Shown here in pieces: positions 24,082 to 29,082 of a stretch of DNA of 64,000 nt (the stretch's first letter is position 1; the number at the start of each line of letters is the position of its first letter). The DNA comes from Dictyostelium discoideum (taxonomy: Eukaryota), in assembly GCA_000004695.1 (NCBI GenBank), contig CM000153.2:3712001-3776000 (forward strand), in the 5' to 3' direction. Made by a program: the position numbers and the translations under genes. The notes beneath the pieces were generated by a model that worked only from the letters and a program-made list of their open reading frames with translations, did not search any database and was not told the DNA's origin.

Positions 24082-24395
24082 ATGACATTATTAAGTATGT
24101 ATTATTTAAATAATAAAAATTTAATCTCTTTTCATACTAATTTATTATTTCATTGTTTTTTTTTTAATTAAAATTAATTTTTTTTTTTTTTTTTACAGAA
24201 ACAATCTCTAATCTTGGTACCAATAATTCTTTGAAGGCCCAATCAAATATACAAATGCAACCAAATGAGCTTTTATTAAATAATAAAAACTCCTTTGGCC
24301 AGAATGAAACAAAGAATTTTGATGTAAATGGATTTTTAGCTACTATGGGCCAAGCTATTGAGATTGCCAGTTTTGCTGCACGTTTTTTTCTTTAG
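24082..24395 (+). CDS. Small protein (69 aa), 2 exons with a 13-nt first exon. Paralogue of 28816..29082
   Basis: The exons are 24082..24094 (ATGACATTATTAA|GTATGT) and 24199..24395, after a TTTTACAG acceptor. The protein is [69 protein letters not shown]. It shares the N-terminal pattern M[ST][IL][IL].TIS.L...NSLK and the exon structure with the gene at 29082. It may belong to a Dictyostelium small-protein family (hssA/2C/7E-like start MT[IL][LF]..IS), but I cannot confirm that. Confidence 0.45.
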
Positions 24396-25675
24396 CTATT
24401 TTGTATGTGATAAATGGCCATTGGTGATGGTGCCAAAATCAATCCTCATCAACTCATAAAAACAAATCTAATTTGGGTGGGATAAAGTAAAGAGAAAAAA
24501 AAAAAAAAATTAAAATAAAATTATATAAAAAAAGAAATGTTTATAACTACCATCGCTACTATTATTATTTTATTATTATTTTTTTTTTGATAATTCTGAA
24601 TTTTTTTTTTTCCTAAATGAGCAATTTGATCTTCCCAAATAAAAATTAATCTATTTTTAATATGTTACTATGTATGATATTAATGAAATTAAAGTGTCTA
24701 TCGATTGTTAATAGCAAGTATCGAACTTAGAAAAAAAAAAAAAAAAAAAAAAAAAAATTAAATTTTTAAAATTGGGTTTTCACTTAATAATTCAGAGTTT
24801 TCTATTTCCATCTTTTCTTTAACATTCATTCAAGCGTGTGGCAAACTGCAATACCTGCAATTTTTTATGAGTTGTAATAAATTTTGTTTTTCAAACCAAT
24901 TTAAACTTGACCAGCGGCCAAAGAAGCATATTTAGGACCAATGGGACATTATTAACCGTGGTTGTTTTAAATTTATTTTTCATGTGAATGGTAAAACAAA
25001 TCAATCATCATAGGACTATAAAATCTGTAAATTTTTGGAAAAAAAAAATTTAGTAAAATTATTTATTTATTTATTAATTTATTTATTTATTGATTTATTT
25101 TGATTCTTTTGTGACTATTGACGAACTTCATAAAAAAAATAAAAAAAAAAATTAAAAAAAATAAAAAAAAAATAAAAAAAAAATAAAAAATTAAATGAAA
25201 AATTTCAGCGTTTAAGGTCGGTTGGTTGCGATTACTTTTAATTTTTAATTTTTTTCTAAATAAACTTTAAAAATAAATTCATTCAAAAATATGCATATGT
25301 ACAAAAAAAAAAAAAAAAAAAATTTAAAAAATAAAATAAAAAAATAAAGATATAATAAAATAAAATAATAAAATTAAATAAAAAAAAAGAAATGATTTAT
25401 ACCAATTTTATAAAAAATAAATATCTCAATTTTTTTTTTTTTTTTATTTTCGGAAAAGGTATTTTCAACCTGCTCAGCGATCATTTCAGACCAAATAAAA
25501 TATTTTTTTTTTATTTTTTTTATTTTTTTTTTTTTTTATTTTTTTTTTTTTCTATTTTTAAACGTCCAGCTGGTAATAATTATTTTGTTATATAACTTAT
25601 AACCTTTTTTTTTTTTTTTTTTTAATTTTTTATTATAATGAAGAAAATAAAAATAAATAATAAAAAATAAAAAAA

Positions 25676-28354
25676 ATGGATAATAATAATAATAATAATA
25701 ATAATAATAATAATAATAATAATAATAATAATAATAATAATAATAATAATAATAATAATAATAATAATAATAATAATAATAACAGTAATGTAATAATTTG
25801 TACAAATAAAAATTGTAATAATGATAAATTATTTTTTAAATTTTTTAGGAATAAATACATAAAAACCATAATAATATCACATTTAAGAATATATGCCAAT
25901 TTATATAAATATACAAGATATAAAACATTTAACAATTTAAATGAAGATATATTAAATGAAATCAAATTTAGAAGTTATATAACATTTTTAAGAATTGATA
26001 ATGGTAATAGTTATATAAAATCACCATTATTATTAAATAACAATAATAATAATAATAATAATAATGATAATAATATTGGTGGTGGTTGTAGTAGTAGTTT
26101 TGAACAGGAAAATAGTAATAATAATTTCAATAAGTTAGCACCATTCTTAGAGACATTAATATTTGGAAATTGTTTTAATGAAGAGATTCCATTAAATTAT
26201 TTACCAAAATCTTTAACAAGTTTAATATTTGGTAATTCATTTAACCATTTTCTATCAAAAGAATTATTAGAACCATTAGTAAATTTAAAAAGTTTAACCA
26301 TTGGATCTAGCTATAAACATAAAATCGATTATATACCACCTTCTGTGAAATTCTTAAAAATAACTTCAAATCATAAAGAAATAAAACCACCTCAAAAACC
26401 TTTAAAATCGCCTAAACCTCATCCAATAATACATATTAGTGATGGTGAATATGAAGAAGAAGATGATAGTGGTGTCTCTATTGATAGTAACAGTGATAGT
26501 GATAGTGATAGTGATAGTGATAGTGATAGTGATAGTGATAGTGATAGTGATAGTGACAGTGATAGTGATTCAAGTGATGATATAGAAGAATTAAATGAAA
26601 CTGATGAAGAATATGAAGATGAAGATGAAGAAGATTATAATGAAGGTTATGATGATTTAGAATTAGAACATGAATTAAATGATTCAGAAGATGACAATAA
26701 TATTAGAAATAATTATAGTAACAAAATTAATATAATAGAAGTAGATATATTACCCAAATCATTAATTTCATTAAGTTTATCAAATTTTAAACTTGCAAAA
26801 GGTTGCATACCAGAATCAGTTAAAATTTTAAATTTTGTAGAAGGATTTGATCAAATGATCGAAGAAGGTGTTTTACCATTGAATGGAAATTTAAAAGAAT
26901 TAAATTTAGGATCAACATTCAACAAACCACTTCAAGTCAACTCCTTACCATTAGGCTTAGAGAAATTAATAATTGGTGATTCATTTCATCATGAAATCTC
27001 TAATAATATTTTACCAAATTCTTTAAAAACATTAGTAGTTGGTAGAAGACAAAATAGCAATAGTGATAATAAAAATTTAGATTTCCTTGACAATTTAAAT
27101 AAATTAGAGAAATTAATAGTTTTTAATCCTTTTGTAACTTATAAAATACCATCATCCATATCGATTTTATGTTATAATAGTAATAATAAACTAATAATTA
27201 ATGATAATAATAATAATAATAATAATAATAATAATAATAATAATAATAATAATAATAATAATAATAATATATCAAATATTAAAGAACTATATTTACTTGA
27301 TGATTTTAATTTAAAATTATCAAATTTATTAATACCATCAAGTGTTACATCAATTACATTTGGTAAATCATTCGATCAAATCATAGAGATTGGTGAAATA
27401 CCAATATCAGTTACAAATATTCAATTTGGATCAATTTATAATAAACCATTAAAGAATGGATCATTACCAAATTCATTAAAGAAAATTACATTTGGACTTT
27501 ACTGGAATCAACAATTAAAACCAAATGATATACCAAATTCATGTGAAGAGATTATATTTGGTGATTTCTATGATAAGCCATTAACCAATGATCTATTACC
27601 AACAAATTTAAAATCAATTACATTTGGTAAATACTTTAATAAATCAATACCTTTAAATTTATTTTCAAATACTCTTCAATTATCACATATATCATTCTCT
27701 GATCATTTTAATAAAAAAATTCAACCAAATACATTACCAAATACAATTTTAAATTTAAAATTTGGTAAACTTTATAATCATAGTTTTAATAACAATACAA
27801 ATAATAATAATAATAATAATAATAATAATAATAATAATAATAATAATAATAATAATAATAATAATAATAATAATAATAATGATAATAATAATAATAATGA
27901 TAATACTATTGAATATTCAATACCATTAAATTTAAAAAGAATTAAATTTGGTAAACATTTTGAAAAATATTCAACATTTAAAATACCAAAATCATTACTT
28001 TGCATTAAATTTAATTTTGGTTCAAATTATGTTGATAAAGAAGATTCACTTTTAAATTTAATTAAATCAACTTATAATTCAAATTCAATTTATAAATTAT
28101 GTTTTCAAAATTTACCAAAAGGAATTAATTTATCAAATTTTCTCGAATTTTTACCAAGTTCTATTAGGGTTTTAAAGATTTCAAATGGTTCAATTGGTGA
28201 TATTAATAATGGTAAATTACCATACTTTATAACTGATTTAATTTTACCACAATCATATTCAATCTCTCAACTAGATTTAAATATTATAAAAACTGTACGT
28301 TTGAATTGGAGTGTTTCTTTATTTACTTATTTCCAATTTATTGATAATAAATAG
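25676..28354 (+). CDS. FNIP-repeat-containing protein, 892 aa, single exon
   Basis: There are many FNIP repeats (LIFGNSFNHFLSKELLEP, ITFGKSFDQIIEIGEIP, IQFGSIYNKPLKNGSLP, ITFGKYFNKSIPLN...). It also has poly-Asn tracts and a (DS)n acidic-Ser repeat encoded by (GATAGT)n at ~26478..26570. FNIP repeats are a Dictyostelium-expanded family (established knowledge). Confidence 0.8.
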   Translation: MDNNNNNNNNNNNNNNNNNNNNNNNNNNNNNNNNNNSNVIICTNKNCNNDKLFFKFFRNKYIKTIIISHLRIYANLYKYTRYKTFNNLNEDILNEIKFRSYITFLRIDNGNSYIKSPLLLNNNNNNNNNNDNNIGGGCSSSFEQENSNNNFNKLAPFLETLIFGNCFNEEIPLNYLPKSLTSLIFGNSFNHFLSKELLEPLVNLKSLTIGSSYKHKIDYIPPSVKFLKITSNHKEIKPPQKPLKSPKPHPIIHISDGEYEEEDDSGVSIDSNSDSDSDSDSDSDSDSDSDSDSDSDSDSSDDIEELNETDEEYEDEDEEDYNEGYDDLELEHELNDSEDDNNIRNNYSNKINIIEVDILPKSLISLSLSNFKLAKGCIPESVKILNFVEGFDQMIEEGVLPLNGNLKELNLGSTFNKPLQVNSLPLGLEKLIIGDSFHHEISNNILPNSLKTLVVGRRQNSNSDNKNLDFLDNLNKLEKLIVFNPFVTYKIPSSISILCYNSNNKLIINDNNNNNNNNNNNNNNNNNNNNNISNIKELYLLDDFNLKLSNLLIPSSVTSITFGKSFDQIIEIGEIPISVTNIQFGSIYNKPLKNGSLPNSLKKITFGLYWNQQLKPNDIPNSCEEIIFGDFYDKPLTNDLLPTNLKSITFGKYFNKSIPLNLFSNTLQLSHISFSDHFNKKIQPNTLPNTILNLKFGKLYNHSFNNNTNNNNNNNNNNNNNNNNNNNNNNNNNNNDNNNNNDNTIEYSIPLNLKRIKFGKHFEKYSTFKIPKSLLCIKFNFGSNYVDKEDSLLNLIKSTYNSNSIYKLCFQNLPKGINLSNFLEFLPSSIRVLKISNGSIGDINNGKLPYFITDLILPQSYSISQLDLNIIKTVRLNWSVSLFTYFQFIDNK
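25683..25786 (+). repeat. (AAT)n tract encoding ~35 Asn at the N-terminus of the FNIP gene
   Basis: A perfect AAT repeat in frame. Confidence 0.95.
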
Positions 28355-28565: not shown

Positions 28566-28815
28566 ACACACATTTCGGGAATGTGTAACAAACGTACTCA
28601 ATTTTGTTAATTCTGATAATAAATAAAAAAAATAAATAAAAAAGATTTTAAATGATTTATTTTCATTTTAATAGTAATTATATAACATTTTATTGATATT
28701 GTTTGAAATTAGAATGAAAATCTTTTTTTAAATTTATTATCAGAAAAAACAAAATATATTGAATATAGTTTACAAAATGAAGAAATTATATAGTCTTTTT
28801 TTCTTTTTTTTTTAT

Positions 28816-29082
28816 TTAATTCTTTAACTTTTCAAAACCATCTTTTGTTTTGTTATATGATTTTGTAAAAAATTCTGTGAATTTACTACTTGTTTCGTTG
28901 TGAGTATAGTTATTTACAGTTGTACCATTTAAATTCCCGATTGTGATATTTGATTTTAATGAATTTGATAAACTTAATTTTGAAATAGTATCTTTTAAAA
29001 TTTAATTAATAAAAAGAATAAAAAAAAATAAAAAAATAATATATTAAAAAATTAAAAAAAAAAACTTACTAATGATTGACAT
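28816..29082 (-). CDS. Small protein (62 aa), 2 exons with a 13-nt first exon. Paralogue of 24082..24395
   Basis: The exons on the minus strand are 29082..29070 (ATGTCAATCATTA|GTAAGT) and 28991..28816, after a TTTTAAAAG acceptor. The protein is MSIINTISKLSLSNSLKSNITIGNLNGTTVNNYTHNETSSKFTEFFTKSYNKTKDGFEKLKN. Confidence 0.45.

Follow-up and report, generated by a model that had tools for sequence, protein, structure and literature searches.

Two small Dictyostelium discoideum genes with a 13-nt first exon are probably divergent, cysteine-free relatives of the hssA/2C/7E family

In dictyostelids, the hssA/2C/7E family (members of which are also named sigN, HssA/B-like or UPF0512; Pfam PF05710, 'Coiled') comprises ~100 genes with a published signature, i.e. 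a first exon contributing an open reading frame (ORF) of 13 nucleotides (nt), followed by a single short phase-1 intron and a ~200-nt second exon. In a published survey, 96 sigN-like genes were described, with proteins of fewer than 120 amino acids (aa) (Vicente et al. 2008, PMC2257962). Here, two small genes of D. discoideum AX4 were analysed, both of which are located within a 64,000-nt stretch of chromosome 4 (assembly GCA_000004695.1, contig CM000153.2, forward-strand positions 3,712,001 to 3,776,000; referred to here as the window), namely gene 1, DDB_G0285863 (prS1), and gene 2, DDB_G0285867. Both were shown to possess the 13-nt coding exon 1 and the single short phase-1 intron of this family.

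The second exons of hssA/2C/7E genes (about 180–280 nt) resemble those of genes 1 and 2 in length, and the encoded proteins appear to share the same type of N-terminal motif, M[TA][IL][FL]x[ST]ISS[IL], which is followed by an S/N-rich linker. Family proteins are about 75–100 aa in length, compared with 62–69 aa for the products of genes 1 and 2, and are thus all small. Their expression is developmentally regulated and cell-type-specific, as is the case here, with sigN and hssA representing prestalk genes, whereas gene 1 is prespore-enriched. Regarding function, sigN antibodies disaggregate mounds, hssA may act as an RNA, and single knockouts of six family genes exhibited no phenotype. Serine-rich chaperone protein 1 (88 aa; SRCP1) has been described in the same developmentally regulated small-protein class as the sigN genes, and is the only member of this class with a defined biochemical activity, i.e. 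the suppression of polyglutamine aggregation. This activity reportedly depends on the C-terminal region of SRCP1 itself, which is not obviously shared by genes 1 and 2. Gene 1 is furthermore the named member prS1 of a Mef2A-dependent group (DDB_G0285863, DDB_G0284623 and DDB_G0271110) presented as 'small proteins (69-72 aa), prespore specific' (Galardi-Castilla et al. 2013, PMC3640940). The criteria for that group were size and expression rather than homology, and gene 2 is unmentioned in PMC3640940.

The structures of both genes are as follows:

24082–24094, plus strand: gene 1 exon 1, 13-nt ORF ATGACATTATTAA (M T L L K-)
24095–24198, plus strand: gene 1 intron, 104 nt, AT-rich, GTATGT...ACAG, phase 1
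24199–24395, plus strand: gene 1 exon 2, 197 nt including the stop codon TAG
29082–29070, minus strand: gene 2 exon 1, 13-nt ORF ATGTCAATCATTA (M S I I N-)
29069–28992, minus strand: gene 2 intron, 78 nt, GTAAGT...AAAG, phase 1
28991–28816, minus strand: gene 2 exon 2, 176 nt including the stop codon TAA

These coordinates and strands, the 13-nt ATG exons, the GTATGT and GTAAGT donors and the phase-1 acceptors are exactly those proposed in an initial annotation, which had been made from the sequence alone. The product sizes given there (62–69 aa) were likewise recovered, with the spliced translations of genes 1 and 2 (MSIINTISKLSLSNSLKSNITIGNLNGTTVNNYTHNETSSKFTEFFTKSYNKTKDGFEKLKN for gene 2) encompassing 69 and 62 aa, respectively, while its intron length of ~100 nt applies to gene 1 (104 nt) and not to gene 2 (78 nt). 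Splicing is indeed needed for an open frame in both cases, as the unspliced ATG frames terminate after 29 (gene 1) and 12 (gene 2) codons; the length of the gene 2 intron is divisible by three, yet two in-frame stop codons are present within it. The gene 1 peptide was shown to be 100% identical, over its full length, to D. discoideum AX4 DDB_G0285863 (XP_637969.1, Q54MM1), and the gene 2 peptide to DDB_G0285867 (XP_637971.1, Q54ML9), and the proposed splice models therefore equal the reference gene models. Both proteins are currently annotated as hypothetical or uncharacterised. Genes of this kind had been expected to be missed by ORF-length filters; both are already present in the annotation.

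A scan of both strands of the window (GC content 22%) for this architecture, defined as ATG plus 10 nt plus GTWWGW, an intron of 50–200 nt and an open frame encoding 60 aa or more, identified exactly genes 1 and 2. The bare exon-plus-donor pattern occurs five times in the window, and first-order Markov simulations of the window yielded a mean chance expectation for the full architecture of 0.12 per window.

Family sequences for comparison were retrieved by a database search with an alignment of three sequences, which served as bait and not as evidence; only the real proteins returned were used. In total, 51 proteins named hssA/2C/7E family, HssA/B-like or UPF0512 were obtained, many of which carry Pfam PF05710, from D. 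discoideum, D. firmibasis, D. purpureum, Cavenderia, Heterostelium, Acytostelium and Polysphondylium. Their N-terminal consensus was shown to be M[TA][IL][FL]x[ST]I[ST]S[IL][SG]N. Six family genes (one from C. fasciculata and five from D. firmibasis) were inspected at the DNA level, and in all six, exon 1 is 13 nt long and is followed by a GT donor at +14, with the phase-1 intron spanning 68–133 nt; the occurrence of the same exon structure in both species therefore places it deep within Dictyostelia. Genes 1 and 2 follow this arrangement (13 nt, 104-nt intron, 197 nt; and 13 nt, 78-nt intron, 176 nt, respectively), and the intron position, inside codon 5, and its phase were identical in all ten genes examined. 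Furthermore, exon 1 of the D. firmibasis orthologue of gene 1 (ATGGCAATATTTA) matches a UPF0512-type exon (ATGGCAATTTTTA) at 12 of 13 positions.

A family hidden Markov model (HMM) was built from 47 real family members, and the resulting scores were compared with those of 20000 shuffles and of 515 background ORF peptides, the best of which scored 5.2 bits. Gene 1 (MTLLKTISNLGT) reached 15.1 bits (per-sequence E 2e-6), a score attained by none of the 20000 shuffles, with an hhalign P of 2.9e-4. Its D. firmibasis orthologue (MAIFKTISNLGG) reached 17.0 bits (per-sequence E 5e-7; 1/20000 shuffles). Shared ancestry with the family is favoured because the unusual intron position and phase are identical, the motif is significant for gene 1, and the two genes lie 5 kb apart.

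Several observations weigh against such kinship. Sequence support for gene 2 (MSIINTISKLSL) is weak, as its score of 6.3 bits is reached by 458/20000 shuffles (empirical p about 0.02) and hhalign returned a P of 2.7e-3 with a probability of 11%; the D. firmibasis orthologue of gene 2 scored 3.8 bits (1202/20000 shuffles). A Pfam scan, including PF05710, gave no match for either protein at E<=10, although many UPF0512 proteins are likewise without a precomputed match. Both proteins and both orthologues contain zero cysteines and 2–8 glycines, and the two genes lack the CGGCGG-type and C-terminal Cys (CGCH/RRCC) motifs, which are present in nearly every retrieved family member. Among the chromosome-4 entries of the 96 published genes, none has the size and intron length of gene 1 or gene 2, and both are absent from the list; it uses older identifiers and was matched by size only, the nearest row being sigN176 (10//178, 93-nt intron). 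Gene 1 has also been placed apart from the 'hssA-related genes' (Galardi-Castilla 2013, PMC3640940). In an exhaustive phmmer search of gene 1 against 1.84 billion representatives, the D. firmibasis orthologue was the only dictyostelid match, and no D. discoideum paralogue was found at E<=0.001. Finally, the aligned region was confined to the first 15–22 residues in every comparison, and the case for homology therefore rests mainly on the coincidence of the motif with an identical intron position.

The phmmer search also returned a single non-dictyostelid match (E 6e-4, five stretches), between gene 1 residues 39–61 (~24310–24378) and a 589-aa hypothetical protein of the snail Bulinus truncatus, which is made up of KR-separated repeats (e.g. 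RETENFDITTILGQIGQVVHVIDQF). This match was judged to be due to chance and inflated by repetition.

If genes 1 and 2 were independent, lineage-restricted orphans, their 13-nt exon and N-terminal likeness would be coincidental or convergent, for example through a favoured start context and an early intron. The missing PF05710 matches, cysteines and Gly-rich body, the single dictyostelid match to gene 1 and the 2.3% of gene 2 shuffles that reach its score would all be in line with this explanation, as would the fact that a composition of S, N, I and T is very common in a genome of 22% GC. The shared intron position and phase in all ten genes, the scores of gene 1 and its orthologue, far above those of shuffles and background ORFs, and the near identity of the D. 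firmibasis exon 1 to UPF0512-like exons argue against it, as does the location of the motif on two genes 5 kb apart which share a rare exon structure. In addition, a rough estimate from amino-acid frequencies indicates that the motif would be expected ~0.2 times by chance per 13,000-protein proteome. Independent origin is thus considered unlikely. Genes 1 and 2 are probably divergent, Cys-free offshoots of the hssA/2C/7E superfamily, rather than canonical members, that have kept its 5′ module, i.e. the 13-coding-nt exon, the short AT-rich phase-1 intron in codon 5 and the N-terminal dodecapeptide M[TAS][IL][ILF]x[ST]IS.... Their C-terminal bodies are unlike the Cys/Gly/Ser-rich body of the family and unlike each other, with only the hydrophobic Gly/Ala-rich C-terminal stretch of gene 1 loosely resembling the Gly-rich hydrophobic stretch of hssA-type proteins.

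The initial annotation had treated the two genes as members of a small-protein family marked by the 13-nt first exon and a shared N-terminus, which corresponds to the published hallmark of the ~100-gene hssA/2C/7E family, and its suggestion of a comparison with that family proved to be the correct lead. The N-terminal likeness between the two is real, yet genes 1 and 2 do not constitute a private two-gene family. A direct BLASTP comparison yielded 9/18 identities (pairwise E 8e-4) in the N-terminal region only, and hhalign aligned 22 columns (P 2.3e-4), with the likeness ending after about residue 20. Beyond this point, the two sequences resemble one another no more than they resemble further members of the family. 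Across the first 48 coding nt, genes 1 and 2 are identical at 25–29 positions, while each matches other family members at 21–28 positions. The motif claimed for both proteins is shared, its pattern being one residue short (both read NSLK[AS][QN]..I, not NSLK[AS][QN].I), and the claimed downstream NET..F occurs in gene 1 (NETKNF) and not in gene 2 (NETSSKF). The NSLK and NET..F matches are probably coincidental, because they are absent from the D. firmibasis orthologues: that of gene 2 has STSIGS in place of NSLK, and that of gene 1 has SNEKTF in place of NET..F. We infer that genes 1 and 2 are old, superfamily-level paralogues, already separate before the split between D. discoideum and D. firmibasis, rather than a recent pair. 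Such a history would involve an old duplication within the hssA/2C/7E family prior to that split, followed by divergence of exon 2.

The genes also differ from the hssA/2C/7E family in their genomic setting, as they are isolated on either side of an FNIP-repeat gene and not part of a tandem cluster. The intervening gene represents context and lies outside the small-gene family:

25676–28354, plus strand: FNIP-repeat gene between genes 1 and 2, 892 aa, Pfam PF05725 (E 1.8e-64), 11 repeats

In D. firmibasis, a collinear neighbourhood was identified, consisting of a BTB/TLD gene, gene 1, the FNIP gene, gene 2 and a 432-aa gene, with the syntenic FNIP orthologue located at 10737–13316 of the D. 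firmibasis stretch L001, and both small genes are included in the annotation of that species. The gene 1 orthologue exhibits its 13-nt exon 1 (ATGGCAATATTTA, followed by GTAGGT) and an 89-nt phase-1 intron (GTAGGT...ATAG), and the gene 2 orthologue a 13-nt exon 1 (ATGTCAATCATCA, followed by GTAAGA) and a 71-nt phase-1 intron. Non-synonymous (dN) and synonymous (dS) divergence from these orthologues was estimated by the Nei-Gojobori method. Gene 1 exhibited a dN/dS of 0.41 (dS 0.67) at 57% aa identity, and gene 2 a dN/dS of 0.14 (dS 1.15) at 76% aa identity. The sole length difference from the orthologues is one whole codon, and the final 27 amino acids of gene 2 are the same in D. firmibasis despite silent changes. 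Genes 1 and 2 are thus spliced, conserved, protein-coding genes under purifying selection, and the earlier claim that they are real genes rather than chance ORFs is upheld by their match to the reference models, the synteny and selection observed here, and the transcripts of gene 1.

It is quite improbable that the functional product of these genes is the transcript, with the ORFs being incidental, as has been proposed for hssA. In published work, overexpression of a frame-shifted hssA still suppressed the phenotype of a STATa hypomorph, and no peptide of either gene was found in the supplements of a 2026 life-cycle proteome paper; the lack of a phenotype in the six family-gene knockouts also speaks for such a role. 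The RNA-only explanation is disfavoured because of the dN/dS values given above for both genes, and the maintained frame and the unchanged C-terminus of gene 2 point in the same direction. Very small Lys/Asn-rich proteins are, moreover, easily missed by shotgun proteomics.

That the ORFs are chance features, or that their second exons are parts of untranslated regions (UTRs) of the neighbouring FNIP, BTB/TLD or 432-aa genes, for which only the small size and the AT-rich surroundings speak, is hardly credible and was rejected, as both genes are annotated separately in two species and are under purifying selection, 0.12 such genes per window are expected by chance, gene 1 exhibits very high, cell-type-specific expression of its own, and gene 2 is encoded on the strand opposite to that of the FNIP gene.

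Published expression data show gene 1 to be switched on at about 8 h of development, to peak at 12–16 h, to be prespore-enriched and to depend on the MADS-box factor Mef2A. At 0, 4, 8, 12, 16, 20 and 24 h, values of 0.5, 10, 1856, 4101, 3339, 1663 and 998 were reported, respectively, and prespore and prestalk values were 1977 and 81, i.e. a difference of ~24-fold (Parikh 2010 values, via Kin et al. 2018). Induction by 8–12 h thus exceeds 1000-fold. RNA sequencing at 16 h yielded 7523 reads in the wild type versus 208 in the mef2A- mutant (PMC3640940), and the prS1 primers published there for quantitative reverse transcription PCR map exactly within exon 2 of gene 1, at 24220–24240 (plus strand) and 24339–24360 (minus strand). 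Gene 2 appears three times in lists of genes differing between developmental time points (Rosengarten 2015), which convey membership only, the direction of change being unreadable; this list membership was all that was found when expression values for gene 2 were sought in published supplements. The developmentally induced, cell-type-specific expression that marks the family is thus observed for gene 1, and gene 2 is listed as developmentally regulated.

Upstream of gene 1, a repeated element was observed:

23623–23797, plus strand: tandem 59-nt duplication, about 460–285 nt upstream of the gene 1 ATG, with copies at 23623–23681 and 23682–23740 (93% identical)

The two copies are followed by a partial third copy, and each contains a G/T-rich sequence (TTGTGGTGGCACAA) and a 23-nt block (AATTCAATGATAGATGTGCAATA) with a GATA-like core, this block being retained at 22/23 positions upstream of the D. 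firmibasis gene 1 orthologue. The tandem element (23623–23746) represents a candidate promoter element of gene 1 and a candidate prespore or Mef2A-pathway cis-element. No MEF2 (CTAWWWWTAG) or CArG sites were present upstream of genes 1 and 2 in D. discoideum, and therefore direct binding of Mef2A is not claimed; the gene 2 orthologue of D. firmibasis is preceded by one CArG-like site.

Upstream of gene 2, at 29436–29610 (minus strand; 355–530 nt from the ATG), four blocks of 15–16 nt, i.e. AATATCACCAGTAATA, ATAAAACGCCATTATT, TTAATTGGCTTTTAA and the CA-rich TAATACCACACATCTT, are identical in D. firmibasis. The region 28744–31165 as a whole aligns to L001 at 77% (blastn, low-complexity filtered), and the conserved stretch at 29436–29610 corresponds to the gene 2 promoter or, alternatively, to the 3′ UTR of the 432-aa gene lying upstream.

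Protein structure predictions using AlphaFold2 in single-sequence mode showed a similar layout for both products. The N-terminal tag was predicted as a weak helix, with a predicted local distance difference test score (pLDDT) of about 60–70, followed by a low-confidence N/S/T/Q-rich linker and one confident C-terminal helix. In the part of the gene 1 protein encoded by exon 2, the remainder of the N-terminal motif is followed by an N/S/Q-rich linker and then by a hydrophobic C-terminal helix (residues about 47–68), the helix being predicted at the extreme C-terminus with a pLDDT of 84–90. The part encoded by exon 2 of gene 2 includes a linker rich in N, S and T and, at the C-terminus, a Lys-rich amphipathic helix (NETSSKFTEFFTKSYNKTKDGFEKLKN), which is predicted at residues 37–61 (pLDDT about 90; hydrophobic moment 0.50) and shows 100% conservation in D. 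firmibasis. Judged from hydropathy, the hydrophobic run at both N-termini is short and hence unlike that of a classical signal peptide.

The C-terminus of the D. firmibasis gene 1 orthologue (LASVGGAFGFVGLAALFLL) is transmembrane-like, with a KD19 hydropathy of 2.14. A best guess is that the gene 1 helix may be tail-anchor-like or membrane-associated in prespore cells, an idea based only on hydropathy and the single-sequence AlphaFold2 models. The D. discoideum helix itself speaks against it, with a KD19 of 1.18, below the usual transmembrane threshold, and with E and R among its residues. For gene 2, the predicted Lys-rich amphipathic helix suggests peripheral binding to a membrane or protein surface. 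Both products would be short and largely disordered, with the shared N-terminal tag and the one C-terminal helix as their functional parts. During the multicellular stage, they would probably contribute to cell-type-specific processes in redundancy with further members of the family. The gene 2 protein, which is without a signal peptide, also contains five N-x-[ST] sequons (NIT, NGT, NYT, NET and NKT), of which NYT, NET and NKT occupy conserved positions in D. firmibasis; these may reflect its N/T/S-rich composition.

Between the FNIP and gene 2 stop codons, a locally GC-richer region (28500–28620) contains a hairpin (ACACATTCCCGAAATGTGT) flanked by AAAATTGAGT...ACTCAATTTT. An Rfam scan of 22000–31500 gave no match for this region, which could not be aligned with the syntenic interval of D. 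firmibasis, where an (ATT)n expansion is found instead. The scan also produced a sub-threshold match to a microRNA model in exon 2 of gene 1 (24.4 bits versus a gathering score of 72, E 0.36), which was dismissed. Directly downstream of the gene 2 orthologue, the D. firmibasis annotation includes a 128-aa gene (L001 10286–10672, plus strand), which is probably a spurious call, because it consists largely of an (ATT)n microsatellite and is without a counterpart in the window. Elsewhere in the window, ARAGORN identified a tRNA-Thr(TGT) at 5163–5253 (minus strand), which probably contains an intron, since its 91 nt exceed the length of a standard tRNA.

The finding is correct but ordinary, because both genes and the 13-nt-exon hallmark were already known: the reference annotation of D. 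discoideum has included both gene models from the genome paper onwards, and gene 1 had already been named with expression data. It does illustrate that splice signals read by eye can recover real micro-genes in AT-rich genomes. The sole increment is that two 'hypothetical proteins', unplaced by Pfam and by the published family list, appear to be Cys-free carriers of the 5′ module of the family. This link hints that small proteins whose bodies are quite dissimilar also carry the family signature, i.e. exon structure and N-terminal tag, and could help dictyBase curators as well as work on the role of the conserved N-terminal tag. A more speculative proposal, which we regard as possible though doubtful, is that the 13-nt exon, the intron and the dodecapeptide constitute a portable 5′ module that has been joined to unrelated C-terminal bodies in dictyostelids, i.e. 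to a Cys/Gly-rich body in the case of hssA/sigN/UPF0512, to a tail-anchor-like helix in that of prS1 and, for DDB_G0285867, to an amphipathic helix rich in Lys. If this were the case, the superfamily would exceed, in both size and diversity, the ~100 genes recognised by sequence, with genes 1 and 2 as its first recognised Cys-free examples, and the module would represent a common targeting, processing or expression tag of developmental micro-proteins.

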